A DNA stretch of 63,978 nucleotides, filler included, from Craspedostauros australis (lineage: Eukaryota), in assembly GCA_030167865.1 (NCBI GenBank). It is 19 parts of 19 records of this genome, joined end to end, with 100 filler letters (N's around TTAATTAATTAA, not from the genome) between each part and the next. Parts side by side here need not be neighbours in the genome. Positions count along the whole stretch, not along the records: positions 14,652 to 16,837 come from JALAGF010000572.1; 18 more parts are not named here. One strand, given 5' to 3'. The translations under genes and the position numbers were made by a program. This document shows positions 2,821-58,977 of the stretch, in pieces; the stretch's first letter is position 1; the number at the start of each line of letters is the position of its first letter. The notes beneath the pieces were generated by a model. That model had not been told where the DNA came from and did not search any database. It was given only the letters and a program-made list of their open reading frames with translations.

Positions 2821-4653
2821 ATTCCACGAGTGGAATGGAGCGGGCCGCACGAGGTACGAGCGCTCTGCGAATACTCACGATCACAAAACTTCCCCGAGCA
2901 GCGTCGTCGATGTGATGCTCGTCGTGCCAATAAGCGCGGAGTGCGGTGGAGGAGGACTGCGCTGCACTGCACTGCCAGCACTCCGACTACGTTGCTGGGA
3001 GTAATCGCCGGCTCTTCGCCTCGTTGTCTGTTGTGCGGCGATGTATCGTGCTCGTGCGGGATGGCGCGAATGTGGTGATGGAAGGCAGAGCAGAGTCTTC
3101 CTACTGTGCTGCCAGTCTTCTCCACCGTCGATGTCTTGTGAGATGCTTGCAACAATCACAAGGACCAAGCATGCCACGTATGGTGCATCGCTATTGTCGT
3201 GTATTGTATTCTATATCGCTCTGTAACTGCTGGTACAAGTGCAGTGGTGGGTATGTTAGCGAGTGTGACCCAGAGACTGATTGGGAGACTGTGATTAGAG
3301 GTGTGTGGAGGTGTGTGTCTGGGAATGCGATTGTGTGACCGCGGAAAGGTGCTCGTTGTCACACCTCGTTCCACGCTGTGGAGGACCTCGTGGTGATTGT
3401 TGCGTGGAGCAACGAAGAGAGAGAGGCAGCTTCTGCAGCCACAAAATCTCGGTTTCCTCTTCTGTGTTCCTCGTTTTGTCTTGTGGTGTTGTGTGTTTGG
3501 GTGTTTGGGTGTGACCCACTGTTGGATGGTCGCCGCACAGAATGATTGCCAAGCGCGAACAGTGGTGGGAACCAACCAATTGAGCGGACTGTGACGACCC
3601 ACAACTCTGCCGCATCCTTCGTCGTTGTCGAGGCACAGCGATCAGCTGCACCGCGTTTCACATCCCAACAAACCAGCCCCAACCACGACAAATGGCGTCA
3701 CCAAGAACAAGAGGGAGAAAACTGGGCAAGACACAAAGAGGAACACAACAAGAGAGAGGTCACAAGAATTGATGCCATTTGGGGTTGTCTGTTTCGTGGA
3801 CGTACATGCGGACAGAGACACCAAGCAGACAAATACGCAGCACTTGATTGGCCCGTGACATGCGGAAGCGTTCTTGCTCGACGTCTGATGTCGTCATGCG
3901 GAATTCACCCTCCGGTGCCGGCCGGTGCGCGATCCGAGAAGAAGCGAGACGAAAACAGAAGCCAGGTGGATTCGATGGACTCAATCTCTTCAGTCATGGC
4001 TGTAGTGTATGACAGGAGTTTAGAGATATGTGCTTTCCCCAATTCAGGATCTGCCCAGGACATCGGCATCGGTAGCCATGAACATGACACCCCTGTGGCA
4101 CAGACGTGGAGATGGTGTCAAGGATGTAGAGCCATCCAATCTGTCCAGACACAAGAATGATTGAGATACTCTTGGCACACTCGGCTCTCCAAATCATGTT
4201 GATGCCGTCGTCAAAAGTCTATCCTATGTACTTTATATAATACTAGTTACCGCTTTGAACTGTCATCACTTCCGGGAGAGAGGCACCCCAAGTGTTCTCA
4301 CGCGATGACGACGTTGATGAAGTCGTTGGTTGGTGGTGGTTTGGTTTCGCTGCTTGGGTGATTGCACCGAGGGGTTAATGGTGGCGTGGGCTGGCTGTGC
4401 CACGCCTTGTTGTACTTGTACCACAGATACTTGTTGTGGGCGTTTCCTTGCTTCTTGCTGTGCAAATGCGTTGGTGGATGTCGCTGCGCTCTTCCGACAC
4501 CTGATCCTCTCTGCTTGAATGGATGTCAAGCAGATTGGACCAAATGACATGGGTTCATCTCACAGAGGTTGCGGGAACAGATGGGAAATTAGGAAGCGCG
4601 CGTCTCCATCCAGAGTGCACACGATGTTGCGCAAGTAAACAAAGGGGATGAGC

Positions 4654-14651: not shown

Positions 14652-16837
14652 ACCAAGGGCGGGCCCACTGAGAGTGGAGACCCACGCAAGGCGTGGAAGG
14701 CCCTTGAACGCATCTACGAGCAACGTACTGCGCCTATCAAGGCAAAGTTGTTGGCTCAACTCAACGGGATGCGGTTGAAGAAAGGCGAGCACCCAGACAT
14801 GTTCCTGACCGAGATGGAAGTGCTGCGTAATCGCCTCGGTAGTACTGGTATCAAGATAGATATACAACAGTACCACATGCTCGTACTCAACGCCCTCGGA
14901 AGGGAATACGAGACGGACGTGAAGCTCTTGGAGCTCAAGTTCGACGGTATGGAGGATACCATGACCCTCGAAGACATCCGCGAGGCTGTCAGTGCCACCT
15001 ACGACGGCCGACACCTCAAACTCAACGGCAACAGACGTGAGAGCAACAGTAATAAGGAAGAGACTGCATTCGCTGCAGTAGGAGGCTTCAAAGGTCACTG
15101 CCGCAACTGTGGCGCCTACGGCCACAAGAAGGCAGACTGCCGCTCCGCCCCCAAGAAAGGCAACGGCAAGAACAAGAAGAGTGGCCAAGGAGACAACAAC
15201 AGCAAGCCCAGGTTCAATGGGGAGTGTAAGTACTGCGGTAAGAAGGGACATAAGATCCTGCAGTGCTTCAAGCTGAAGGCAGCCATGAAGGAGGCAGACT
15301 CGGCCAACGTGGCAACTGATGGAATGGAGGGAAACAACGACGTGGCTCTTATGATGACAGATGAGCTAATTGTGTCCCCACCTCGGGAAACACGAACGAA
15401 TTGGAAAATGTGACCAACTTATGTGTGAACACAGACGAGGGAAAAACACGCGACATCGGAAGCAACAATCAATCCGACTCCAACGTAATGGAGGACGTCG
15501 CCTTTGCAGCCATCGTCGAACAGACTGACACATCTCCCATTGTTTCCTTAAGACCACACAACATCAACAACAAGATGAGCAACTCCAACCAAGGACAAGA
15601 ATCCTACTACGACGCAAGCCTCACCAACGAAGGGGCCACCGACACCGAAGACGTGGATGACGACATGGGCGATGCCAACCGAGGAGAAGCGGCACGTCGC
15701 CCTATCTTCAACTTCGCCCCAGAGCTCTCTCGTGTGGACCGCATGATCGGGAACTCAACAGGGCTCACCACCAACACGGCTTGGTGCCCTTTGTGCCTCA
15801 AGCGAGGACCACTCTACGCATGGTGCGTGGAATGCCCCCAAGTTCCTTTCTTCATCCAGCTCCACAATGAGCCAAGAGGGAATGTACCAACCAACGACGA
15901 AGAGCGCGCGGAACGACGTACCAGACTCGAAAGAGCTGGCTCCCTCCGCAATGCAGTTCGAGCATCGCTGAGCAACGTGCTCAAAGCCGATGATGTGCGT
16001 TGTGAGCTCGCCTTACTGTGCTACGACGCTGTGGCCACCCACAGCGGGGACCGCACTCCACTGATCGAGCCGCGCACAGTGTACTACAAGCTACACGAGA
16101 TCGGGATGATCACCACATTGAGTGTGTGTCGCAACCCGTGCAACATCAACAACAGTTTGGAATCTCGTCGCTTCGACCCCCTCCCCAGCGATCTGATTAC
16201 GCGCATGACCCACCATGCCGCGAACTCCATCCATTGGACCTATCATCAAGGTGACGGCGGAGTCCGAAACCCAAGTCCAGAGCACTGGGTGCTACCGATC
16301 TACTCTGAACAGTCAGAGCAACACGAAGTGGCAATGGTGGTCGGCAACACCGACAACGTCAGCGCAAGGCGCTCCTCCGTCGCACCGGACAATTACGAGT
16401 CCAACACCTGGTTGGGCGATTCGGGAGCATCGTGCCATCTCACCAACAACGATGAAGGGATGACCAACGTTCGCGTCTCCGATCAGAACGTGAAGATCGG
16501 GAGCGGACGCTTCCTCAAGGTGACCAAGGTGGGGGACAAGCACATGACCGTCATGCAAAGGAACGGAAGGAAGTACAACGTGGTGCTCAAGTCGGTGAAG
16601 TACGTGCCCAAGCTTTGGATTAATCTAATGAGCATCAACAAGGCTCTCGAGAGCGGATTCAACATCAGCAACCTCGGCGTCATCATGACTCTAAAGAAAG
16701 GCAAGGCGCGCATCAGCTTTGATCGCATCATGGCGACTCATAGCGGCTTCGTCTGCGGAGTGACCATGGTGAACAACGCCAAGGCCGACGACCAAGCTCA
16801 TGTTGGTGTGTCAACCGACGCACCAGTCGACATCAAC
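14652..16837 (+). mobile_element. Ty1/copia fragment: gag (14652-15413, two CCHC knuckles), then in the -1 frame an extra domain and aspartic protease (15365-16837)
   Basis: GDPRKAWKALERIY (UBN2-type gag), CRNCGAYGHKKADC, CKYCGKKGHKILQC, protease WLGDSGASCHL, LKSVKYVPKLWINLMSI. Confidence 0.9.
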
Positions 16838-21711: not shown

Positions 21712-22662
21712 TTAGAAGACAAATTCGTTGCCTCCGGTGGGGAAGACTCCATCATCGTCGTCGTCATCGTCATCATCGTTATTATCGTCGAATTGACCTT
21801 TGGCTCCGCCGCCGCTGCTGCTGCTGCCACCACTGTCGTCCGAATTGTCAACGAAGAAGGACGGCCCACGTCGCTGCGCTCTACGTGCGTCGCCTTCCGC
21901 CTTGGTCTCCAAGATCTCGAATTCGCGCACGACGATCTTGGGAAGCATTCTGGGCTTGCCCGTCACCTTGTCCGACCACCGATCGATCCGCAGACTGCCA
22001 ATAACGCTCACACGCGCACCCTTGTCGGCGTACTTCTCGACGAACTCGGCCGTTTTGCCCCAGATCTCTAATCCGAACCAATCCGTCTCCTCCTGGCCGG
22101 ACTTGAGGTTCAAGGAGAGACGTTGGGCGGGAGCGTACTTACGCTTGACGGCGAGGTTTACGTTGACGACAAGCTTGCCATCGTCGAAGTACTTCGCTAC
22201 GGGATCCGAGCCCAACCGTCCTATCATAGTGACGATGTTGAGCCGCATGACGCGATCGTCCCATTTCGGCGGCACTTCGCTCGCGTTCTTCTTGTTCTTT
22301 TCCTTGACCATTTCCGCCAACTTTTCCAGTTGCTTTTTTTTCTCGCTGTCAGACAGTTTCGACTTCCGCTCACCGCCTTCAGCCGGTTGCGACTTCCACC
22401 CTCCGCCTTCACCCGGTTGCGACTTCCATCCGCCGCCTTCACCCGGTCGCGACTTCCACCCACCGCCTTCACCCGGTTGCGACTTCCACCCGCCGCCTTG
22501 CGTGTTCGCGAAGAGCTGAACCTGCTGCCGTCTCGATGCGTTGGCTGGCCCGAACGGCGATGCAGAATGCAACGTGGCAGTGTTCGCGGTGGACCATGCC
22601 AGGCTCTGGTCAATGCACCACAAGCTGATCACTGTGGCCAATATGATTGCAAATCGTCCCAT
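21712..22662 (-). CDS. ssb: Plastid-targeted bacterial-type single-stranded DNA-binding protein
   Basis: Signal peptide ending SLA|WST. OB fold LNIVTMIGRLGSDP...EETDWFGLEIWGKTAE...KGARVSVIGSLRIDRWSDKVTG. Acidic tail ending in F. Confidence 0.9.
   Translation of the reverse strand: MGRFAIILATVISLWCIDQSLAWSTANTATLHSASPFGPANASRRQQVQLFANTQGGGWKSQPGEGGGWKSRPGEGGGWKSQPGEGGGWKSQPAEGGERKSKLSDSEKKKQLEKLAEMVKEKNKKNASEVPPKWDDRVMRLNIVTMIGRLGSDPVAKYFDDGKLVVNVNLAVKRKYAPAQRLSLNLKSGQEETDWFGLEIWGKTAEFVEKYADKGARVSVIGSLRIDRWSDKVTGKPRMLPKIVVREFEILETKAEGDARRAQRRGPSFFVDNSDDSGGSSSSGGGAKGQFDDNNDDDDDDDDDGVFPTGGNEFVF
22360..22500 (-). repeat. 30-bp coding tandem repeat (~4.7 copies) encoding GEGGGWKSQP
   Basis: Plus-strand units gacttccaccc(t/a/g)ccgccttcacccggttgc repeat with a 30-nt period. 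Confidence 0.95.
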
Positions 22663-27290: not shown

Positions 27291-30200
27291 ATGCCATCCA
27301 CCAAGATCCAAGCCAACAATCGATCACCGTCACGGAGACGGGGATCACCGCAGAAGAACCAGTCCACCCTGATATCCTTCTTCAAACCCGCCTCACCGAT
27401 ATCGAAAACCAAAGTCACCAGGAGTAGCACCAGGAGTAGCACCAGGAGCAGCAGCAGAAATAACGCTGGAAGCAACGTCAAGACATCGCAGCCCAAGTTC
27501 CGCGAAGGGACCCAGCTGATCAAGGTGAGTGAAGCTTGTTTGCATCCAGAATTTTCAGTTGTGTTGGGGTCGGGAGCATGAAAACGCAGTGGCTGCATTG
27601 TCGCCATCCTCTTCGATCGCGTGCGACGACATCTCACGCTCTCAAAATTTGCTGCCGACCTCTGCCACACCATCCCCAGAAATTCTTGTTGCCTCCGCAC
27701 AAAAGCGGGACTCGAAATCCATCCGCGGATTACATTCATGATCATGGCACCTGGGTGAAGGGCCACGTCCGCAAGGCCGAGCTGTGGCAGCATCCAACAA
27801 ACAACGGCGGCCGGAATGGAGATTCGTGGGAATATGAAGTGGAATGGGAGCACGCCGCAGCGAACAAAGACAGATTGAAGCAAGCAGAGGTTGAATTTGG
27901 ATGCAAGGCATTCCAGAATCTGAATCGGCCAGTTGCCAAGTACTTCGACGCTTCCGAGCTCTTCTACGGCAAAGTGATCAACGTGACACCGCCCCATCTC
28001 AGCGATACCGACGAAACGTACTTCCGCATCCAGTATGATGATGGTGATTCGGAAGATATGACAGGAGCGGAAGTCAAGCAACATGCTGACCTCTATGATC
28101 AAGAACAGAAGAGGACGAACCCGCCGAAGGAAGCCGCAGCTCGCGGCAAGAAACGAACGAGCGCGAGCGTGTCATCAGAGAAGACTTCCGCACCATCCCG
28201 CAAAAGCAAGTATCTCAAGTTGATGGCTTCCTACAACAACGACAACGAAGACAGTGGGAATGATGACGGTGCCGCGGGCAATGTCCAGGCTGAAGCAATG
28301 AAAGTTGATACTGGTCGACGTGCCAACAGCAGAGACAGCAAAACCACCGGTGGCAACAGCAACAGCAATGGCGACAGCAACAGCAGCAACAATGGCGACC
28401 ACAGCAGCGTCAAAACAGAGAGACGCAGATCATGTCGCTCAACCGCCAAGGCAATCAAATACACAGAGCACTTGCATTCGGAGGATTCCTCAGTCGAAGA
28501 CCCGCCCAGACCGCAGCGGCGAACCTCCTCCCGGACGACAGCAACGGCGACGACGACGACTCGCAAGAATTCTCGTGCAGCTGCAAGCAACCAACGCAAG
28601 CGCAGGCAATCCGCGGACGATTCTGACTCTTCTGCGTCCTTTCATAACGATGATGATCAGGACGATGACGATGATGAACTGATGATTGATGTTGCGAAGA
28701 GCGCGTCCAATGAACGCGCTGCTTCCTCAACGAAGACGGGAGCTGGCAAAGCATCGAACAGTCTTGGCGCTCGAAAGCCCAAGGCCAGCAATTCAAGAAA
28801 GACCACCAAGGCGACCAAAGCTTCCAAAATCAGCGACGGCAAGCCCAAGGGGAAGTCAAAAATGGCCGAGTCTTTTACACCACTGAACGCGCCGATCTAC
28901 CCTGGCCACTCACTTGAAACAATCCAAACGAAGTACGCATACCTCGATCCCTGTGGCATGGAGGCAACCGATGATATCTTGGACCGCGAGGTTGGTAAAC
29001 AGGTCGACAAAATTGGATCCCTGCTGAGCAGAGCGATCGGTAACGGTGCCATTGGCGGAGCCACCAATCCGCTCAAGCTGGGAACAGCCTGCAGCGGTAC
29101 GGATGCACCAGCTCTCGCTCTCACGATCGTCCAAGAGCAATGGGAGCTCCGGAAGCAGAAGGCACAGCTCGGCATCGAGCACGTCTTCAGCTGCGAGAAG
29201 GAGCCCTTCAAGCAGGCCTACCTGGCGCGCAACTTCGATTCCATCCTGTATCCCGACATCTGCAAATTGGGCCAGCCCGATCACACACCACGAGATGTCT
29301 ACGGCCGAACAACGCCCCTGCCGGACATGAATCTCTTCGTCGCAGGCACCGTCTGCAAGAATTTCAGTATGCTGCGGTCGAAGTGGCGGATCGATATTGA
29401 AGACAAGGGGGAGAGTGGCGAAACATTCATGGCTGCGACGGAGATTCTGTGGAAGGAGCAACCCGAAATGGCCGTTTTTGAGAATGTGGTCGGCGCTCCG
29501 TGGGTGAGTCATGCCATTCGTTGTCGTTGTCGTTGTCGTCGTTGATGCTCATTTTTTATGACCGTACATAGGTATGTGTGCAAACACCAACTCACCAGAA
29601 ACGCTCGGTCTAACACTTTCCCATCTCTCCGTGATCCCAAACCGGCGCCGAAACATCCATCTCATCCTTGGCACGCATGCTTTGCCTGATGATCGTGTTG
29701 ATACTTCGCAGCTCAAAATGCAAGAGTACATTACAGGTCGAGTAAAGCTCTCAACTGCTTCCGAAAACAAGGCGATCAAAAAGGACACGCGCAAGAAGAA
29801 CGAAAAGCTGTTGTTCGAACGGACCAAGCAGGGTCAGATTGTGGTCGCGGCGGTGCCGTCGACGTACGGCATTCGATGCTGCGCAGTTGTCGAGGGATTT
29901 TGCAAAGGGGAATCTACGACTGTATCCCCCATAACATGGCCGAAGGGAAAGTCCCAATCGCGGGACCAATGCGAACTGAAAGATCTGCTCCTTGCCAACA
30001 AGATCGCTGAAGAAGATATCCTCGTGTTCAAAACACCGTGCCAGTATCGCACTCAGATAGTGAAGGTCGACACCAAGGCATACGGCCTACCCCAGACACG
30101 CCAGCGTGTGTACATGTACGTTTGGAAGGTCAGGGACGACGACACCAACGACAATCTGGGGACGTACTGGCAAGCCATCGTGGAGCATCTGGAATCCCCA

Positions 30201-33200
30201 GTGCAGCATTCCCTCGATGCATTCATGCTGGATGACAACCACGATGTGATCCGAGTATTCCGCGAAGCGCTAAATGGACCACCCGGTCGCCAGACCAAAC
30301 GTGTCAACTTTCAAGAGCCAGACTGGTGGGCAGTGCACAGTAGTAACCGCGTGCACAACAAGTATGCTCGGAAGGGACTGGGTCTGGAGGACGAAGCAAG
30401 GTTCCTGACCAACTGGAAGGCATTTGGCGGGAAGCAGATACCGCTTCATTATTGGTTGGAGTACGTGAACTGCAACGGTGCACGAATCATTGACATGCTC
30501 GACATTCTCAATGCAGCCTGTTTTCGAGACGCAGAATCGCACGATCCTGGCTTCACCTCGTTCTATTGGAATGTGAGCCAGAACGTCTCCAAAGAGAAGC
30601 ATCGCGCTGCGACGCCAGGAAGTAAGTGCGGTGAATGAGCCTCTCTCATTTTAGGTGTTGCCTTGAATGCATGGAATGAGCTTGGGTGTGGACGTCAACT
30701 TTCGGCATTTGTCTTGTCGATGAAAGCGATTGAGATCGCGGAGAACAGAGAGCAAAGACCACAAATCAGAAACTGAGCATGCTGATGTTGCATGTGCCAC
30801 ATGCTTACCTTCCTCACAACTTGGATGTTCCTCTTTTATCGCTTTCGCACCGAAAATCGACCTTGCTCACTTGTACTCGTACGTTGGACTGCGCGCTTTA
30901 CATCGTCTGTGGTCTTCGGGTTTGGTCGATCCTCTCGTACCTTCGCTTGTTTCCTTTCACTGAATTCCCTTCTTCTGTTTCGCGCATGATGTGCTTTTCA
31001 GTCGCTGGTTGCATAACTCCAGGAGGCGACTTCCTGATCCCTCATCGTGGCCGCCCGCTCCTTGGATGCGAGAAGCTGCTCATGCAAGGCATTCCGTACT
31101 TCCGTTTGCTGCTGGGCAACGAGACGGAGGTGCAGCTCGGCGACCTGGCAGGCAACGCCATGAGTCTCACGGTCGTCTGCGCAACGATCTTGGCGTCGCT
31201 GACGTGTCGCCAGCTGCAGAAGGAATGTCCTGGTGGCAATCCCCAGGACATTCGAAATTACCTGAAGAAGAATTGCATGTTCGAAGACAGCTTGAAGAAG
31301 CAACAATGGGCTGACAAGGTGCCCCCGCCGCTATCCTCCAAGGCCAGTCTCCTCGTGCATCCAACCGCGAGCGAGGATGTTGCGATGCCTTTCGATGAAC
31401 TCTTTCGAGACCTGGCCGGCATGGCCGAGGAGGCAACGAAGTCCTCAATCTGGTGCACATGCGAATCAAGTGGCACAGTGTCGCGAGAATCCAAATTCTT
31501 GCAATGCAGGATATGCCGTGCCTCGTGCTGCCGCAACTGCATCAGCTCGCTTGCTGGATACAATGTTTCATCGCACGACACAACGGAAGTCGAACTATCG
31601 AAGGATGAGCACTGCCTGGCAGCATTCCAAACCAAACTGCGAGACAAAGTGCCAACGTCGCTCCAATTTGGCGAGGGCAGCCTCAACGAGATCGCGCAAA
31701 CGAACAATGACACCTTTCGTGTGAAAGGACTCGAGGCATACACTTTCAATCTGCATCAAATCAAGAGAGATCGGCGACGATGGACTGTCGTGTATTACGC
31801 CCGCGAAAATGGTGGCATCGGCGAAGCGCTGGCGGAGCTGCGCCTCATCGTCGGCGAATTGAGGCGTGAATCACTGCAGCACAACAGCGCGTGCCAGATG
31901 GGTGTTGCGGCAGAACTGGTGTCGTTCTTACCAGCGCGGACCTTCCCGTTGCGATTTGGACCACTGGGGCCATGCGCGAAGGTCGAGGTCCTCAAATTTG
32001 GTCCCACAACCTTGGCTGGAAGTGATTTCCATTGGCAACATCGAAGCGGCGATGTCGTGTTGGAAGCAACGGTTGAAGGGAGTGGGCACACACCTTCGCC
32101 CAGGAAGGAGGTGGGATTGATGGACAGCATCGAAGCAGATCTGAGGAAGACAGCAAAAGCCGGCCACAACAGAAAGAAGTTTGAATCCGCAGAATTACGA
32201 GGAGAGAGGAGGCGATGGCTGTATGCAGCGAATTGGCAAACGTGGCCTGCCTCTATCCACGTCAGGATCAACGATACAGATAAGTCTCGCCACGCTTCAA
32301 TTGCCGGCATTTACAACCGCACAGGCTGCAGGCAGTCGATCAATCAGTCAGCTCTCTGGGTGAAACAGGCTTCGGATGCAAGCAATGCCGACGGTGATGA
32401 TCATGACGGTGAAAATGTCGGAAATCCTGCACAGCAGGCCATGTACATCGTGATTCGACCTTGCGTCGACCGCACAGGCCCGGATGTCGCTGTCATCTCC
32501 ACATCGATCGATGCGTCCCATGATGCGTCAGTCGTCGCGGAGTTCCCTGCGACATGGCAACCCTGCGACGCTTTCGATCCAAAGCGGTATGCACAGAAGC
32601 TTGTATGCAGGAACTGGACGAGCAGCAAGCTCGTTCAATGCCTGGTACCGCCGTCTACATCCACCGCGGTGGCAGGCAGAAAACAATCAGACGAGCTGGT
32701 ATCGATCAAAGGTCTGTCCGCGATGGAGCTTGCGATGTTCCATCAGGCTGCTGGGTTGGCGACGGACAGGTGCGGGACTCCCGTGGAACTGTGCATGTCC
32801 CAAGGACAGCAGGCACAGAAACTTGTGCGGGTATTCAACACAGTATGCACGGCAAAGATCCTGAACCTGGCCGCCAAAAATCGATTGCCGTACGATGTCT
32901 CCAACACATCATGGATCGACTTGGAAGAGGACGTGGGGATGCGATTTGGGCACTGCGAAAAGACGATTCCGAGAAGGCCTGTCGAGCAATGGGTCTTTGA
33001 CAAGGAGCGCAACAGCTGGGAGCGCACAAGCGAACCGGATGCTGCAAGCCGCTACTGTACTCAGCTGCATGAGGCACCGAAGCCTTTTGAGTTTTGGTTG
33101 GACAGCGCCTCGAAGCAGCTCGTGGTCAAGTGCTTTCCCAAGGTCGTTGCGCATCATGCTGCCCACATGCTGATCAATTGCAGAGGGAAGCAGATCGAGA

Positions 33201-35644
33201 ATGGCGAGATTCGAGTGCGTGGCAAACTGTCGGATACGTCACTTCAGGACGACCCGGACATCAAGGCCTTCCGAGTCAAGAATTGCGACCACATGGAGAC
33301 CACGGATGTCGCTCTGAGCCACGGTCACGTGCTGTATCAACGCCAGCAGAAGGTTGTGACCCAGATGGTAAGAATTGAGAGCGGGGAAACGACTTTCACA
33401 GAGGAAGAGATGAGTGAGCATCAACTCGCGGGCTCGACAGGACTGAGCTTCATCGCCCAGGCAACGCGTTCCTCCAAGATCAGAGGAGGTGTGATTGCTG
33501 ATGCCATAGGTGCAGGCAAGACTGTGATCTCCATCGCAATTATCCTCCAGGGTATTGAACACGCGAGGAAGTCAAGGTCCGAACCATGCAAAAGTGGAGC
33601 GACTCTCATCGTCGTCCCCCCTGGACTCATCAAGCAATGGGAAAGTGAGATCCAGAAGTTTGCCCACCGTCTCAAGGTCTTGCCAATCTTCGCATTCGAT
33701 TCGTTGAAGAAAACATCGGTGAAACAACTGCTCGAGGCTGATGTGGTCATATGCCCCATCGATATTCTCGAATCGAAGGGTTACCTGGAGAACCTGACGC
33801 AGAAGGCAGGGTACTTGAAGGAGCTGGTTGAGAAGTCAAAGGTCTTGAAGGAGCTGGCCCAACCTGCGCGCGGTGGCATTCCTCGGGAGATCATACCAGA
33901 AATGCCACGATCAGTAGGCCAGGTCGAAATCACGGCAGCCCGGGGCAACTGGATTCCGTCCACCTCCACCGACCCCTACGGCGGAGGCAATCATTGGCAG
34001 AACCAACGCCGTCGCAACCAGTCCGCGCACTACACTTACATGTACGAGAATAGCGTCAAACACCTGCGCGAGCAGAAGTTCGGAGCATCCAGCAAGGGGA
34101 TCCCGTTGGAATACTTCGAATGGGAACGCATTTTCGTGGATGAGATCCATGAGAGCCTGTGTACCACCAAGGCCGAGGTCAGCACAGCGAAAGAAGCGTA
34201 CGAATTCAACAACACGTCCACGAAGGGGTTCTTCGCGGAGAAAAATCGAAGAGCTGGCCGAGAGCTGCTCGGTATCACCATGAAGGAGACGGCGAACAGA
34301 CCTCTGCGATGCCGCAATGCCATGTTTGGTCTCACGGTAAGTCACAGCGATTGAGAATGGGACCTCGAGAGCATCATCACTGCGTGGTTATGTGTGCTGC
34401 AGCGTGCTGGTGTGTCAGAAGAGAGATGGCTATGTTTGATGCGTCGTCAGCACTTCTTGCTTTGCCGTACCATTCGCGTGGCGTGTTGCTTTGGTTGGTT
34501 TGAAGCTTTCCCAATCGAGCTCGCCGTGCGCTATTCTCTGTGCAGAGGATTTTGTTTTCTAACTATTTCATAGTCGTGTGGCCGTGTGCCACCGCATTCC
34601 AATTGCTATTTCGCTTTCATCAACGCATACATCCACTGATATCACAATCCACCATTCAAAATCCACAACCTTCAGGGCACACCGCTGCTCGACAGCACAA
34701 GTCGCGTTTGCGAATTGGCCAACCTCATGGGCGGCGTGTACGTCACGGGTCTGTGGTCGCATTGGAGAAGGCTGGAGCGTGAATCATGCCGTGATATCTT
34801 CCTGATGAACTACCTCGTACCCAAGCAGTCACGTGAAACTCGCAAGGCAATGTACCGCAAGTCGCAGGACTACCTCGATGTCGCGTGCTGCCGGAACAAG
34901 GCAGATGATCAGATGGTCGGAATCAAACTGACCGAGATGGTGAAGCGCGTGCAAATGACGAAAGAGGAGGAAGAGATGTATCTGCGAAGTCAGAATGGAA
35001 TTCTGAAGGAGCAACGAGGTTTCTCAGTTGTGCCAACCGATTTTGATCCCAGCGCAGGCCATGACATCAGCCAGTTCTTGAGGCAGAACTCCAACATGCC
35101 CTGCCGTGGAAAGGAGCTGTCGAGGATCTGCGAGAGTATCCTGAAACGTCGACCGCAAACCAAGATCGTGGTCTTCTGCGATGGCAGGATCAACGCCAGC
35201 TTCCATGCCCAGCAGGCCCTGCAACGGGAAGGCGTGGAGTGCACATGGCTGGACCCGGAAGATACGGTGGAGAGGCGAAATGAAAAGATTTCATGGTACC
35301 AGGTGGCCGACGCCACCGAGGAGGATAAGGCAAGGCCCAGGATCCTGCTGCTCAATTTCGAGCACGCCGCAGGTCTCAACCTGCAAGCCGAGTGCAACAA
35401 CCTCATCCTGTACACTCCGCTGTACGTCGGAGAAGGTGGATCGAGCGGAGATCCAGTGACCGACGTCAGCACGGAACTCCAAGCCATTGGCCGCGTGTAC
35501 CGACCAGGCCAACCGCAACACGAGGTGCTCGTGTACAGAATCGAAGTCAGGGGGCCCAACGGCGAAGCCTGCCTGGATGATCACCTGATTCGGAGGAACA
35601 CCGATGCAGACACCAAAGCCGAGGCAACCAACTCCGGTGACTAG
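27291..35644 (+). CDS. DNMT5: DNMT5-family cytosine-5 DNA methyltransferase fused to a SNF2 ATPase (~2,420 aa); exons 27291-27524, 27680-29503, 29712-30621, 31002-34336, 34676-35644
   Basis: MTase motifs LGTACSGTDAP (I), FSCEKEPFKQAYLARNF, AGTVCKNFS (IV), ENV (VI), YGLPQTRQR (VIII), GCITPGG, DLAGNAMS (X). SNF2 motifs GGVIADAIGAGKT, VDEIHE, GLT|GTP, AAGLNL, QAIGRVYRPGQ. All four GT-AG introns keep frame and two rebuild motifs (ATPG|IAGC, GLT|GTP). Confidence 0.93.
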
Positions 35645-41326: not shown

Positions 41327-44300
41327 AATCTGCACAGCTCCATCGATATCATCATCGTGGACCCGGATACTCGTGTACAGCGTCCAGACAACGTCACGGG
41401 AGAGATCTGGATCACCGGGGCCTCTGTGACCGCTGGGTACTACAATCAGCCACAGCTCACCGCCGAAACCTTCCAAGCTACACTCCAAGGCGATTCATCA
41501 TCTAATATGGACCGCAAGATGTACTTGCGGACTGGAGACTACGGGTTCTACCAAGATGACTATCTCTACATCTGCGGCCGCAAGAAGGACATCATCATCG
41601 TCAACGGTGTCAACTACTACCCGCAAGATATCGAGCACGCTGTCCAAGATGCATCATCTTCCGTCCGTCCAGGGTGTGTCGCTGCCTTCTCATCTGATGA
41701 ATCAGGCAACGATGGACAGCTCGAGATCGTCTTTGAGATCCGATCCAATCATGCAGACAATGCCGCAACTGTCTGTCAGGAGATCAGAAAGGTCGTGATT
41801 GAGCACATCGGATTGACACCTGTCACAATCGCAGCCGTCAAGGAACGCACCATCTCCAAAACAACAAGCGGCAAGATCCAGAGACGCCAAAATCGCCAAT
41901 GTCTTCGCGATGGAGACCAGAAAGCAATATTCAACTTCAGTGCAAACCCAACTCCAACCGCCCAAGTTGCACTGGATGGCGATGCCAAGTCATCGCCAAC
42001 CGAAACCATGTCGGCAAGGAATGCAGACCAAGACGAGGACCTCCAAAGTAAGACGTTCAATGAGATCATCAGGAACGCAACGGGATCGCAAGTCAAGGGA
42101 GGTGAAACGTGGGAGGACGTTGGATTGTCATCCATGGGGGAACTGGAGCTCCGGCAATCACTGTCAAAACGGTACAGCACCACCCTCCCTCCGAATTGCT
42201 TCGACATGTTCTCAACGCTCATGGATCTCGAAACATTCCTCGAGACATCGCACGGAGAACCACTCCCAACGCGTCTCCCGGCGCTCAAGAGACTCACCAG
42301 CATGCGCAACGAGAAACGGCTCTCCCAAACAACAGCCACTGTCATCCAGGTCATCGGCGTGCTCATCATCCTCTTCATGTTCGCTTTGCCCATCATTCCT
42401 GCCTACGGAATCGGCAAAGTCCTGGCCAACGACAATCGCACCCGCGTCGTCTTCTTCATCGATTCTTCGGCATTCATCTGGATGTGCTACCCGCTGGTGA
42501 TCCCATTCTGGATGATCATGCTCACGCTGGAGGTCATCCTGTCGAAGTGGATCATCATTGGCAGGTACCAAGAGGGATACACCAACCTCGTGTACTCCTG
42601 CTTTCTTCGATGGTGGTTCGTGGACCGACTGATGCACATGTGGGAAAACTTCGTCGGACGCTTCATCGTGGGCACACCATTGATGACAGCATTCTGCTAC
42701 CTCATGGGAGCAGATGTCCATCGTTCGTGCAACATCGATTCCTTCATTCGGGAGTTCGATCTGGCGAAAGTCGATGCCAACGCCTTGGTGAGCAAACCGA
42801 TCCGTTGCCGAATGTTCGGGGCATGGAAAGATGAACAAGGTCCCAGCTTGCGGTTCCGCAAGATCCAGGTGGGATCGAATGCCACGATCAAGGGCATTCT
42901 CAGTCCAGGCGTCAAGGTCGGTTCCAACTGCTATGTGCAGCACGTTTCTGTGCTGGCAGAGGGTGCCCAAGCACCGCCCAACACCGTCATCCGAGGCAAT
43001 CCTGGATATGTCGAAAGCGCGGAACCTGCAGCGGCAGAAGCGACAACGTCACAAGGCAGCAACATTATCAGCATTGACGGCAGCGACGATGGCGACAACA
43101 ACAACGACAGCGACGATCCGCAGCAAGCAGGTGCGAGTACAGCCGCAGACGTAGACGGAAACGTAACGCCAAACAACAACGATACCAGATGGGCCATCCT
43201 GGGTGGCATGAAGATGACATGGCTGCTCGTCGAGCTGTACATGACCTTCTGCTGCTTCCTCATTTCCAATATCTTGGTCCGCGACGACCTCCAAGACTGG
43301 AGATACTCCAAACTGCAATATTGGGCTGTATCCATCGGTCTGTCATCAGTGCTGCTGGTGATATCCAGCATCCTACTCAAGTGGGTGATGATCGGCAAGA
43401 AGAAACCGGGCCAAGCGAGCACCGGTATCTGGAGTGAATTCGCAGACTGGGCATGCGACTATCACTTCGACCGAGCATGCTTGATACTCTATGGTCTGAC
43501 CACCAATTCGATCATTTGGAACCTGGTCCACATGGCTCATGGATTGGACATCGATCTGCGATCAAAGATTTTCGGTGACAGCTTCCATCCATCCGAAGTC
43601 GACCTCATCACCATCCGACGATCGTTTGTATCCATCGTCACCTTCCACACCAAGGAAAACGGTAAATACGGGAGAGCCACGATCGAGGACAGCAGCATCG
43701 GGATGCTGACTACCTGCGCGCCGGGTGTGACAGTCCGCAACGCTTTGGTCTCGCCGCAGACACACATCACAGAGAGCATCATCCATCCAAAGCCCGATCC
43801 GCGCAACGAAAGAATATCAGATTTGAAATTGACCGGGATCATGGTGGCGAGCACACTGCTGTACGCTGTCACGCTGCTCGTTGCAGCAATCAGCTTCATC
43901 CCAGCCTTTGAGCTATGGATGCATGCCATCAAGCCGCAGTCATCAGTCGAGGCGGTCCCACTGGTGGTGCTATCGGTCATCATCCAGACCATCGTGTGGA
44001 CCATACTCTTGCGTGTGCACGCTTTGATCACATTCGCTGGAAGCAATGAGCGAACGACGCCATGGTGCTTGCCGCTGTACATGGTGTACCAATCATTCAC
44101 TTACTCCGTCCATAATTGGTCGCTGTATCCCATGCTCTGGGGAACACCGATGATCAACAGCGTTCTCCGCTTTCGCGGGGTCAACGTTGAAGGTCGCTTG
44201 CTGTACTTCGGCTTCCGCCTCTACGAGCCGACCTATGTCACCTTCGCGGATGGATGCGTCGTCGATGAGTGTTCAATCACTGGTCATAGCGGCATATTCT

Positions 44301-44506
44301 CTAAATTGACTTTGGGGAAGTCGTACGTCAGCGGAGTGTTGCATCAAAATTGCGCCGTCATGATGGCAACCAAGACGGCAGCAACCGCAGACGAAGCAAG
44401 GTTGGTTGAGCATGGGCCTCAGCATCTCCTCATGAACTCGGATGAATCGCTGGTTGGAGGACAAGCGGGAACCTCCAAGGAGATGATCCATTCAGACACA
44501 GCCTGA
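41327..44506 (+). CDS. 5'-truncated NRPS-like membrane protein: FAAL-type adenylation C-terminus, carrier (ACP/PCP) domain, three TM + hexapeptide-repeat modules (Pls/PosA, TIGR02353-like)
   Basis: GEIWITGASVTAGYY, YLRTGDYGF, GRKKDIIIVNGVNYYPQDIE, KTTSGKIQR; carrier motif DVGLSSMGELELR; KWIIIGRY..G, RWWFVDRL, IQVGSNATI...GVKVGSNCYV, KWVMIGK.KPG. Confidence 0.85.
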   Translation, partial: NLHSSIDIIIVDPDTRVQRPDNVTGEIWITGASVTAGYYNQPQLTAETFQATLQGDSSSNMDRKMYLRTGDYGFYQDDYLYICGRKKDIIIVNGVNYYPQDIEHAVQDASSSVRPGCVAAFSSDESGNDGQLEIVFEIRSNHADNAATVCQEIRKVVIEHIGLTPVTIAAVKERTISKTTSGKIQRRQNRQCLRDGDQKAIFNFSANPTPTAQVALDGDAKSSPTETMSARNADQDEDLQSKTFNEIIRNATGSQVKGGETWEDVGLSSMGELELRQSLSKRYSTTLPPNCFDMFSTLMDLETFLETSHGEPLPTRLPALKRLTSMRNEKRLSQTTATVIQVIGVLIILFMFALPIIPAYGIGKVLANDNRTRVVFFIDSSAFIWMCYPLVIPFWMIMLTLEVILSKWIIIGRYQEGYTNLVYSCFLRWWFVDRLMHMWENFVGRFIVGTPLMTAFCYLMGADVHRSCNIDSFIREFDLAKVDANALVSKPIRCRMFGAWKDEQGPSLRFRKIQVGSNATIKGILSPGVKVGSNCYVQHVSVLAEGAQAPPNTVIRGNPGYVESAEPAAAEATTSQGSNIISIDGSDDGDNNNDSDDPQQAGASTAADVDGNVTPNNNDTRWAILGGMKMTWLLVELYMTFCCFLISNILVRDDLQDWRYSKLQYWAVSIGLSSVLLVISSILLKWVMIGKKKPGQASTGIWSEFADWACDYHFDRACLILYGLTTNSIIWNLVHMAHGLDIDLRSKIFGDSFHPSEVDLITIRRSFVSIVTFHTKENGKYGRATIEDSSIGMLTTCAPGVTVRNALVSPQTHITESIIHPKPDPRNERISDLKLTGIMVASTLLYAVTLLVAAISFIPAFELWMHAIKPQSSVEAVPLVVLSVIIQTIVWTILLRVHALITFAGSNERTTPWCLPLYMVYQSFTYSVHNWSLYPMLWGTPMINSVLRFRGVNVEGRLLYFGFRLYEPTYVTFADGCVVDECSITGHSGIFSKLTLGKSYVSGVLHQNCAVMMATKTAATADEARLVEHGPQHLLMNSDESLVGGQAGTSKEMIHSDTA

Positions 44507-52332: not shown

Positions 52333-53582
52333 GGACCAACTAGCGGACCCACATCCGGACCAACTAGCGGACCAACATCCGGCCCAACTCCACAGCCAAC
52401 ATCCCAGCCAACAGCCAGTGCTGCACCAACCAACTGCGTTGATCCAGATGGCGCCAAGTTCGTCAAGTCCACCGATGCTTCCTACACTGCAGACCCCAAG
52501 CCAATCATCCTCACATTCGAGAGCGACGATGCAACACTCGTTGAGTTTGACTTCATTCAGAACATCATCAACGGGGTCATCCCGCATGTCTTCATCAAGT
52601 ACCGCAAGTCCGAGACTGGTATCAACGAATGCGCTGAGTTTGCAAATGTCGGAGAGAACACTCCGATCTCACTTTCTGCCGAGTGTGTGGACATGTCCAC
52701 GAACGTGGTGATCTACATCTACACTGGCGATGACTTTGCCAGTGAGAACTGCGAGGCATGCAGCCTTCCAAGTGATGACGGCGAAGGTGGCTCAGGCAAT
52801 CCAGACAACTTTGCTGCGTACTACTTCGATGTTCCATGCAACACCGAGTGTATCGAGCCAACGGCTGCCCCAACTTCGGCGCCGACCTCTGGACCAACAT
52901 CCGGACCAACAAGCGGCCCAACATCCGGACCAACGTCGGGACCAACCAGTGGACCAACATCCGGACCAACCTCTGGACCAACTTCAGGACCAACATCTGG
53001 ACCAACCTCGGGACCAACCAGCGGACCAACCTCTGGACCAACATCTGGACCAACATCTGGACCAACTAGCGGACCCACCTCTGGACCAACCAGCGGGCCA
53101 ACGTCTGGACCAACCAGTGGACCTACTTCCGGCCCAACCTCTGGACCAACTAGCGGACCAACATCTGGACCCACCTCTGGACCAACCAGCGGGCCAACGT
53201 CTGGACCAACCAGTGGACCTACTTCCGGACCAACATCCGGTCCAACTAGCGGACCAACATCTGGACCAACCAGCGGACCTACTTCTGGACCAACTAGCGG
53301 ACCAACATCCGGACCAACTAGCGGCCCAACTTCGGGACCAACCAGCGGCCCAACATCTGGACCAACCTCGGGACCTACTTCGGGACCAACCTCTGGACCA
53401 ACTAGCGGACCAACCTCTGGGCCAACGTCTGGACCAACTAGCGGACCAACCAGTGGCCCAACCTCTGGACCAACTAGCGGACCAACATCTGGACCAACCA
53501 GCGGACCAACATCCGGACCAACCAGCGGACCTACTTCGGGACCTACTTCTGGACCAACTAGCGGACCAACATCCGGACCAAC
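52333..53582 (+). CDS. Internal fragment of a mucin-like extracellular protein: Cys-rich globular domain flanked by PTSG tandem repeats
   Basis: Frame open across the whole contig: GPTS repeats, then a ~140-aa domain (NCVDPDG...ECAEF...AECVD...NCEACSLP...YYFDVPCNTEC), then PTSG repeats. Confidence 0.8.
52882..53582 (+). repeat. 12-bp coding tandem array (~58 PTSG units) with synonymous variation
   Basis: Ser codons vary among tct/tcc/tcg/agc/agt while the peptide is invariant; a ~60-nt block recurs 96 nt apart (53071 and 53167). Confidence 0.95.
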
Positions 53583-57681: not shown

Positions 57682-58977
57682 GGCGTCGTACATGTCGCCG
57701 ATCACCATGGCTAGTTCATGCGCATGGTTGTACCCGTAGATAGGCAACTCGTCGAACATGTGCCCATCGCGCACGCCGTTATTCGATGGATGGTGAATCC
57801 AGAGCAGGCGATCCGCGGCCATGGCGCTCATACGCGAGATCAGATTCTTCGGGAGTGGCGGGAGACGATTCTCCTCAAGCAAATCGTTGATGTCGATTGC
57901 CTTGCTCGCCACGTCGTATGCGCCCATCACGCCGATGGTCATCAGCATGAAGTACACACTCCGCACTTCCATGCGGTTCTCGTCGATGCCTTGGTATGCC
58001 TCCATCGCGTCATAGCAAATGAGCGAGAGGTCGGAGCGAACGTCGTTCGCAGGCATCACGTTGGACAGCGAGCACCTCACTGCATAGGGAGGAGTGTCGC
58101 TTCCAAGGATTTGGCGGCGTTGGAGCTTCTCAGCTGGAGTCACAGGCACGTCTCCCTTTGGTCCTCCTGGGATGAGGATCAAGAATGGACAGAACGGGCA
58201 GTCAATACACCATGAGAACAACGGCCCTTTGGTCAGGCACAGTGGGCACCACGCGTTGTCGTTGTCGCGTCGAGACGCAATCTCGATCAACCCGTCCAAG
58301 TAGGAGCGGATGGGGCGCACGTTGTAGATCGGCTCTGGTCGCCTTGCTGAGGCCGTCGCGTGGAGGTCGATGCCGGGCATCGCGATCTCGTTGCTTTCGG
58401 TTTCGTCAGCTTCGCTCTCATCAGACGAGAACAAGTTGTCGCTCATCATGCGCTCCGCGTGGACTTGCGGTCCGTAGTAACCGTAGTCGTTCGGGCTGCG
58501 AATCCCAACCACTTCGATCGATCCCTCGTCGTTGCTGTTGTTGGTCCCGTTGTAGAACCCTGCGGCCAAGTCTCCATCGACGACCATGAGAGCCATGTCC
58601 TCCATGAGGTTTTCGATGTTGCTCTCCGTGTCGTGGGTGCGTATTGTCACGATTTCGTGGTCGGTGAGAATTTGTTTTTCGCTCACATTTTTGATGTTGC
58701 GCGCGATTTCTCCATCTTCCGCGATTTCGTGACACAACATCACATCATCGACGGTGATCAGCGCGACGTCGTCCATGCCGTCCATCCCGTCGGTAGCCAC
58801 ATTGGCTGAGTCTGCGTCCTTCATCGCTGCTCTCAACTTGAAGCANTGCACGATCTTGTGGCCTGTCTTGCCACAGAACTTGCACTTGCCGTTGAAGCCT
58901 CCGGCGCTGAAGTTGCCGTTGTTGCGGTTGCCATTGCCGCGGTTGCCGTTCTTCTTGGCGCCACCGCCTTGCTTGCC
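57682..58977 (-). mobile_element. Second, divergent Ty1/copia of the 14652 family: zinc knuckle followed in frame by the extra Cys4 domain
   Basis: FNGKCKFCGKTGHKIV.CFKLRAAMKDADSANVATDGM, then AWCPLCLTKGPLFSWCIDCP...; colinear with 15200-16345. Confidence 0.85.

Follow-up and report, generated by a model that had tools for sequence, protein, structure and literature searches.

A predicted accessory domain between nucleocapsid and protease in Copia retrotransposons of Craspedostauros australis

Introduction

Retrotransposons are major drivers of diatom genome size. The polyproteins of Copia elements usually follow the order Gag, protease (PR), integrase (IN), reverse transcriptase (RT) and RNase H (RH), and few additions to this plan are known. 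The window analysed here, a stretch of 63,978 nucleotides from the C. australis assembly GCA_030167865.1, is made of small contigs joined by N spacers, and one of these contigs (14652-16837) carries a Copia fragment in which Gag and PR are far apart. The second zinc knuckle ends near 15266 and the PR motif starts at 16409, in agreement with the gap of ~380 codons reported in an earlier note on this DNA, which placed in it a Cys4 and helical domain shared with a second element. This raises the question of what the inserted segment is, whether it is maintained by selection and what it could do for the element.

Copies A and B of the domain

Both copies were found at 15689-16345 (copy A) and 57691-58350 (copy B), with the motifs quoted for them present. 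They are unlinked fragments, and their features are as follows.

14655..15410, + strand: copy A gag fragment with the C-terminal part of the capsid and two CCHC knuckles (Retrotran_gag_2, E 1.4e-10; zf-CCHC; translation)
about 15099-15140 and 15225-15266, + strand: the two CCHC knuckles of copy A (zf-CCHC, translation)
15365..15413, + strand: overlap of two frames in copy A, with a one-base frame break nearby that is private to this copy
15365..15688, + strand: linker of copy A, acidic and fast-evolving, with a hydrophobic A-F-A-A box (putative protease site)
15689..16345, + strand: accessory domain of copy A (219 aa), with a confident model for residues 11-186
15785..15835, + strand: CxxC-x3-G-x5-CxxC ribbon of copy A, from the alignment of 24 copies (putative metal-binding site)
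15986..16243, + strand: helical core of copy A, ~85 aa, Rad51-NTD/NusA-AR/SAM-like in the predicted model
16322..16342, + strand: H-E-V-A-M-V-V box 3' of the copy A domain (putative protease site)
16409..16783, + strand: Copia aspartic protease of copy A, in the same frame as the domain (Pol_BBD, E 4.1e-15)
57691..58350, - strand: accessory domain, copy B, with its Cys4 ribbon at 58198-58248
57682..58977, - strand: copy B fragment with knuckle (58843-58884), linker and domain in one open frame (translation)

The two domains are colinear and 42% identical (BLASTP E 4e-56 over 322 aa, linker included). Copy B had been described as having an intact frame, and it is indeed open from knuckle to domain apart from one N codon; its contig ends upstream of the protease. 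The gag part of copy A (14655-15410) and its ORF for domain and protease (15365-16837) lie in different frames, separated by a one-base break in the linker. Since this break is absent from 17 sister loci, copy A appears to be a defective copy or to contain a sequencing error. One of the 17 loci has a frame break of its own at another place, and a programmed frameshift was ruled out, as the breaks are private to single loci and differ in position.

The window also contains a DNMT5-like gene with Tudor, C5 methylase, SNF2 and helicase C pieces (27533-35644, + strand), a fragment encoding an AMP-binding, phosphopantetheine-site, hexapeptide-repeat protein (41327-44503, + strand), and tandem 12-bp and 30-bp coding-type repeats (52333-53582 and 22344-22499).

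Occurrence in the C. australis genome

The genome contains 157 matches to the domain, and no internal stop was found in 125 of the 150 matches listed. A total of 69 distinct domain-bearing contigs were inspected, and all proved to be Copia or Copia-derived: in 55 a gag knuckle and/or a protease lies beside the domain, and 14 are members of a non-autonomous lineage with an internal deletion, whose sequence matches the pol and LTR of a full element. No host-gene copy was present among these 69 contigs (about 80 matches lie outside the inspection), which speaks against an ordinary host gene captured once.

Near-complete copies consist of one ORF of 1746-1982 aa encoding gag, two knuckles, acidic linker, domain, PR, IN, RT and RH, and in the proteins P0006 and P0007 the Pfam order is Retrotran_gag_2, zf-CCHC, Pol_BBD, SH3_retrovirus, RVT_2. 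By the pol order PR-IN-RT-RH behind gag, the host elements are Ty1/copia LTR retrotransposons. LTRs were found at two loci, as ~750-bp direct repeats starting with TG and 95-97% identical in L035 and as repeats 91-95% identical in L046; the short contigs of the window itself show none. With duplicate loci retained, domain and PR share a frame at all 51 loci where both could be placed, and knuckle and domain do so at 33 of 39. The copies fall into about six subfamilies, with domains 29-47% identical to that of copy A. Tandem repeats of the domain within single contigs were treated as scaffold overlaps around N gaps.

Several other features of these loci were recorded. The internally deleted lineage (L051-L064) is multi-copy and has stop codons in common; its members lack PR and the beginning of IN, which were removed at one shared junction. 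It was amplified after decay, and L059 retains an LTR-like repeat. A palindromic 12-mer lies directly after the 5' LTR in L035 (about 1960-1975) and L059 (about 4620-4635), at the place expected for the tRNA primer site. A 1676-aa Copia ORF of another type (L047:1-5028, + strand) stands tail to tail with a domain-bearing element. Silicon transporters, which mark the host as a diatom, are represented by 92 matches in the genome; so many are unusual and may reflect expansion of the family or the presence of several haplotypes in the assembly.

Sequence and predicted structure of the domain

The cysteine motif was given earlier as CxxC-x10-CxxC, a pattern that matched none of the copies; they are matched by the x9 pattern, and the motif is CxxC-x3-G-x5-CxxC, with nine residues between the pairs. 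The alignment of 24 copies has 20 invariant columns, including the four Cys and the Gly of this ribbon, and several Arg are at least 90% conserved within this group of copies (clade 1). The model has two short hairpins, and the ribbon with its four Cys is predicted to bind zinc. RanBP2-type fingers have the motif W-x-C-x2-C ... C-x2-C with a ten-residue spacer and a central Asn; this type was rejected on account of the nine-residue spacer with its invariant Gly and the absence of a zf-RanBP match.

When 16 distant members were aligned, no column was invariant and only one Leu reached 90%, the broadly kept positions being hydrophobic ones and an Asn. The net charge of the helical core ranges from -5 to +6. 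With so few conserved positions, none of them catalytic, and a charge near zero, the core is probably not an enzyme, and tight binding of nucleic acids is slightly disfavoured as well. Searches of Pfam with the 24 and the 16 members returned no match for the domain (no SAM or HHH family at E 1 or better), and PDB sequence profile searches likewise gave no match for it, nor any SAM/HhH-type chain. The segment therefore does not coincide with a copia gag or pol domain annotated in Pfam. A dUTPase was rejected likewise, with no dUTPase match in Pfam or fold searches.

Short hydrophobic boxes of the A-x-x type are seen repeatedly at both borders of the domain and are putative protease sites; the pattern was defined after inspection of the sequences, and one of 11 scanned proteins is without a box. 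This reading leans on the protease sites of Ty1.

An AlphaFold2 model built on the 24 related sequences has a pTM of 0.76 and is confident for residues 11-186. VIA-align comparison of residues 100-185 gave the C-terminal domain of AF1548 as the best match (Z 7.8, 1.8 A, 60 aa), followed by Rad51/RadA N-terminal domains (Z 6.4-7.5), among them 8xbw, whose title describes binding to the histone H4 tail (Z 7.0, 1.9 A), and by NusA-AR (Z 6.4), many SAM domains (Z 4.4-6.4), Hel308 (Z 6.2, 25% identity) and BAF (Z 4.3). A core of ~60 residues superposes at 1.8-2.7 A with 0-25% identity. Globins and channels, in a second list, reached 3.7 or less, below the SAM/HhH-type matches. Because all Z scores are under 8, a range in which according to the tool an arrangement can be a common one, the resemblance to the small helical domains of the Rad51 N-terminal, NusA-AR and SAM type is suggestive and is used as a working resemblance rather than as membership. 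No Foldseek match in the PDB and viral sets reached E 0.001. The N-terminal half folded alone was uninformative (pLDDT 55, one match at Z 2.1), and a homodimer prediction, run without alignment and with the fold uncertain, scored 0.00, a value that speaks neither for nor against a dimer.

Relatives outside the genome and a second Copia clade

A search with the whole polyprotein retrieved 85 Copia proteins outside the genome, and the distant relatives appeared by this route only. Two of the proteins are from Nitzschia inconspicua, and by kinship with these the hosts of the outside proteins are presumed to be diatoms. Among the 85, an HMM of the helical half first matched P0011 (E 8e-5) and, when iterated, converged on eight proteins, all with the core upstream of PR, while reversed-sequence controls reached a best E of 0.05-0.13. 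The CxxC-x9-CxxC pattern occurs in seven, again always upstream of PR, and four of them combine ribbon and core. In the other three (P0018, P0025 and P0059) homology of the helical region is unconfirmed, with a best E of about 1.0. The remaining four core carriers are without the ribbon, although two of these are N-terminally incomplete. Copies A and B thus have both a Cys4 site and a helical part, as the earlier note held, but the Cys4 site is not what defines the domain: it appears to be optional, and the ~85-aa helical core would be the older part. As 77 of the 85 relatives gave no match to the helical core, the domain seems dispensable in other lineages. Long knuckle-PR inserts without a helical-core match were seen in P0022, P0035, P0047 and P0019, the first two sharing a different, Trp-rich motif.

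Searches with the domain itself gave little. A word-based search among longer proteins confirmed none of 1016 candidates. HMMER with the 24-sequence profile against 1.84 billion representatives gave two weak matches, to a RING-like repeat and a Lys-rich repeat protein, both rejected; this blank was misleading, as relatives were found later via the whole polyprotein. The ESM Atlas gave no match above 0.78. A scan of metagenome contigs with the clade-1 profile gave 14 pattern matches, none confirmed, and the broad alignment has no stretch conserved enough for such a scan. A database search with the broad alignment returned nine proteins, three of them already in it.

The C. australis genome itself contains a second Copia clade (L071-L085), whose PR is about 40-47% identical to that of copy A. 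Its knuckle and PR are separated by 362-452 aa, which include a diverged helical core without a Cys4 ribbon. This clade was found through PR and is therefore independent of the domain search. In profile-profile comparison, the probability was 90% for clade 1 against the outside set, a value that is partly circular, and 70% for clade 2 against the outside set, with reversed controls under 0.5%. The direct match between clades 1 and 2 is weak (hhalign probability 2.9%, E 0.016), and the two appear to be linked only through the outside set. On the question whether the domain occurs only in the gag-PR position, PR lies downstream in all eight outside core carriers. The expectation that a copia PR follows the knuckle closely is half true for this lineage: among the 71 outside relatives with a knuckle, the linker has a median of 81 aa, being 60 aa or less in 34 and exceeding 190 aa in 18.

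A FastTree phylogeny of PR and IN, built on relatives other than the named CoDi6 sequences, groups both local clades with P0012 (support 99) and places the other carriers in a separate group. Because short-linker elements lie near both groups of carriers, the distribution would be due to an ancient origin followed by losses, or else to transfer.

Selection and allele pattern

By the uncorrected Nei-Gojobori method, dN/dS of the domain is 0.08-0.37 within subfamilies, far from the value near 1 that had been named as evidence against function, and the domain is under purifying selection there. Copies A and B give 0.42, with synonymous sites near saturation. The 133 of 276 pairs with dS of 0.1-1.5 have a median of 0.43 and reach at most 1.0; saturated between-subfamily pairs account for the high values. 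Values between subfamilies, where sites are saturated, are 0.26-0.85 and thus below 1, and no positive selection was seen. In the deletion lineage, the domain has stops and lost cysteines and a median of 0.51 over 21 pairs, consistent with relaxation, though short of 1 with the uncorrected method. The neighbouring linker gives 0.23-0.41 within subfamilies. Between subfamilies, the helical part is 31-40% identical, as compared with 70-80% for PR and 70-81% for IN.

In subfamily A, divergence at fourfold sites is highest in the domain, at 0.32, as compared with 0.12 for gag, 0.21 for PR and 0.06 for IN. The domain value lies above those of its two flanks in 27 of 32 pairs, which come from nine loci and are not independent. 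The same holds for all six pairs of subfamily E, with PR nearly as high. Since the peak extends into PR, most clearly in subfamily E (0.40 versus 0.38), selection may act on a site next to the domain. The synonymous sites of gag and IN diverge freely between subfamilies (pS 0.42-0.77), and low flank divergence is therefore likely to indicate recent ancestry rather than constraint. In AU tests on 11 loci of the assembled contigs, the domain alignment rejects the gag, linker and PR trees (p 0.0002 or less), and the PR alignment rejects the domain tree. The simplest reading would be that old domain alleles were recombined onto young backbones, a pattern that frequency-dependent selection at a nearby site would produce, although chimeric assembly of short, gapped contigs could create part of the conflict.

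Possible function of the domain

The segment is very probably a folded accessory domain with a SAM/HhH-like core and an optional Cys4 ribbon, encoded within the one Gag-Pol polyprotein of a Copia lineage of diatoms that is CoDi6-like. The accessory protein proposed earlier is hence retained as a selected domain carried by the element, though as a segment of the polyprotein and not as a free gene; the anti-silencing or targeting roles suggested with it are speculative. Translated as part of Gag-Pol, it would be taken into the particle, where the element's protease would free it at the hydrophobic boxes on both sides or leave it tethered. It could then serve, without catalysis, as a surface that recognises other proteins, either a host factor or those of sister elements. 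If rare versions are favoured, old alleles would persist and be moved by recombination onto young backbones. We tentatively prefer this reading, of a protease-released recognition module with allele-specific partners, while rating it a little short of an even chance. The more specific form, a balanced polymorphic specificity determinant that is exchanged as a cassette and sets co-assembly, restriction or escape from host defence, is unlikely as it stands.

A somewhat unlikely alternative, though the strongest rival, is that core and ribbon attach to cDNA or to nucleosomes within the pre-integration complex, as the Rad51-NTD or BAF do, and so protect the cDNA or steer integration. The top fold matches, mostly Rad51/RadA N-terminal domains and among them the histone-tail entry 8xbw, the Hel308 and BAF matches and the conserved Arg of clade 1 would fit such a nucleic-acid or chromatin binder. 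This is countered by the near-zero net charge, the absence of any basic residue conserved among distant members and of a Pfam HHH match, and the distance from integrase, with the protease in between; non-specific DNA binding, moreover, does not predict deep allele diversity.

It is quite unlikely that the domain serves as a pro-domain that regulates the timing of PR dimerisation in Gag-Pol, or as an assembly aid that scaffolds the particle, a folded counterpart of the retroviral transframe peptide. SAM folds often self-associate, and in every carrier the domain lies a short way upstream of PR, in frame at all 51 loci. Its tree is incongruent with that of PR, so the two have been freely re-paired, and close relatives manage with linkers of 34-60 aa and no domain.

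An anti-silencing factor that binds the DNA of its own family and counters host methylation, in the manner of the sequence-specific factor VANC (10.1101/2024.04.02.587720), would account for the fast divergence between subfamilies (30-47% identity versus ~70% in PR) and would have a possible counterpart in the DNMT5-like gene of the window. It is nonetheless very unlikely: the sequence and fold searches listed no factor of this kind, the domain is embedded in Gag-Pol instead of forming a separate gene, and the shuffling of alleles among near-identical backbones would uncouple them from family-specific DNA targets. Most improbable is a passenger, a captured host fragment or spacer retained merely to keep the frame open, for although the linker too has low dN/dS and most relatives are without the domain, the 20 invariant columns with four Cys, the confident fold, the retention across deep branches and the lack of a host-gene copy in the inspected contigs all oppose it.

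If the specificity determinant is real, it would amount to a self/non-self system inside a Copia Gag-Pol polyprotein. The nucleocapsid-PR junction would in any case gain a folded, uncatalogued module, with or without a zinc ribbon, in several diatom-type Copia branches. The peak of old synonymous diversity suggests that this site is one of conflict, whether with the host or between elements, and a small, probably soluble protein with natural alleles could offer a handle on the interaction between diatom retrotransposons and their hosts.

Comparison with known systems

The full-text literature gave no description of the domain, and neither did the available portions of PMC6317226, PMC3185560 and 10.1101/2024.04.02.587720; subscription papers, Repbase, GyDB and supplements (PMC2806351 Additional file 1) were outside its scope. 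As compared with Rad51/RadA N-terminal domains, NusA-AR, SAM and AF1548, the core superposes, at Z under 8, and here carries additional N-terminal helices and the predicted zinc ribbon.

The closest Copia elements described are the diatom Ty1/copia families CoDi6.2-6.5, with tandem CCHC fingers (PMC2806351). They share the diatom host, the copia domain order and the tandem CCHC knuckles in Gag, whereas the accessible part of that source mentions no domain between knuckles and PR. The present elements appear CoDi6-like by the two CCHC knuckles of a diatom Copia Gag, the tree being one without named CoDi6 references. The N. inconspicua relative P0073 has a linker of 52 aa. Additions elsewhere in diatom elements include the chromodomain of CoDi-A integrases (PMC2774666). 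Sireviruses, too, are Copia elements whose Gag is greatly extended beyond the CCHC knuckle, and the extension is reported to bind the host protein LC8 (PMC2829016). In those plant elements it is a predicted coiled coil, as opposed to the compact, predicted globular fold seen here, which includes a Cys4 ribbon and shares the PR frame.

In position, the nearest parallel is the betaretroviral NC-dUTPase, an extra folded domain between nucleocapsid and protease that is proteolytically released (PMC4531489). It is an enzyme reached by frameshift, whereas the domain described here has no conserved catalytic residues and lies in a single ORF. For the allele pattern, the parallel is the gag exchange between Ty1 and Ty1' (PMC7055915), in which copy-number control is affected. 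That case concerns a capsid segment for which restriction was demonstrated, and the present one a separate domain known from sequences alone; in both, a divergent segment appears to have been transferred by recombination between subfamilies, in yeast with a specificity phenotype.
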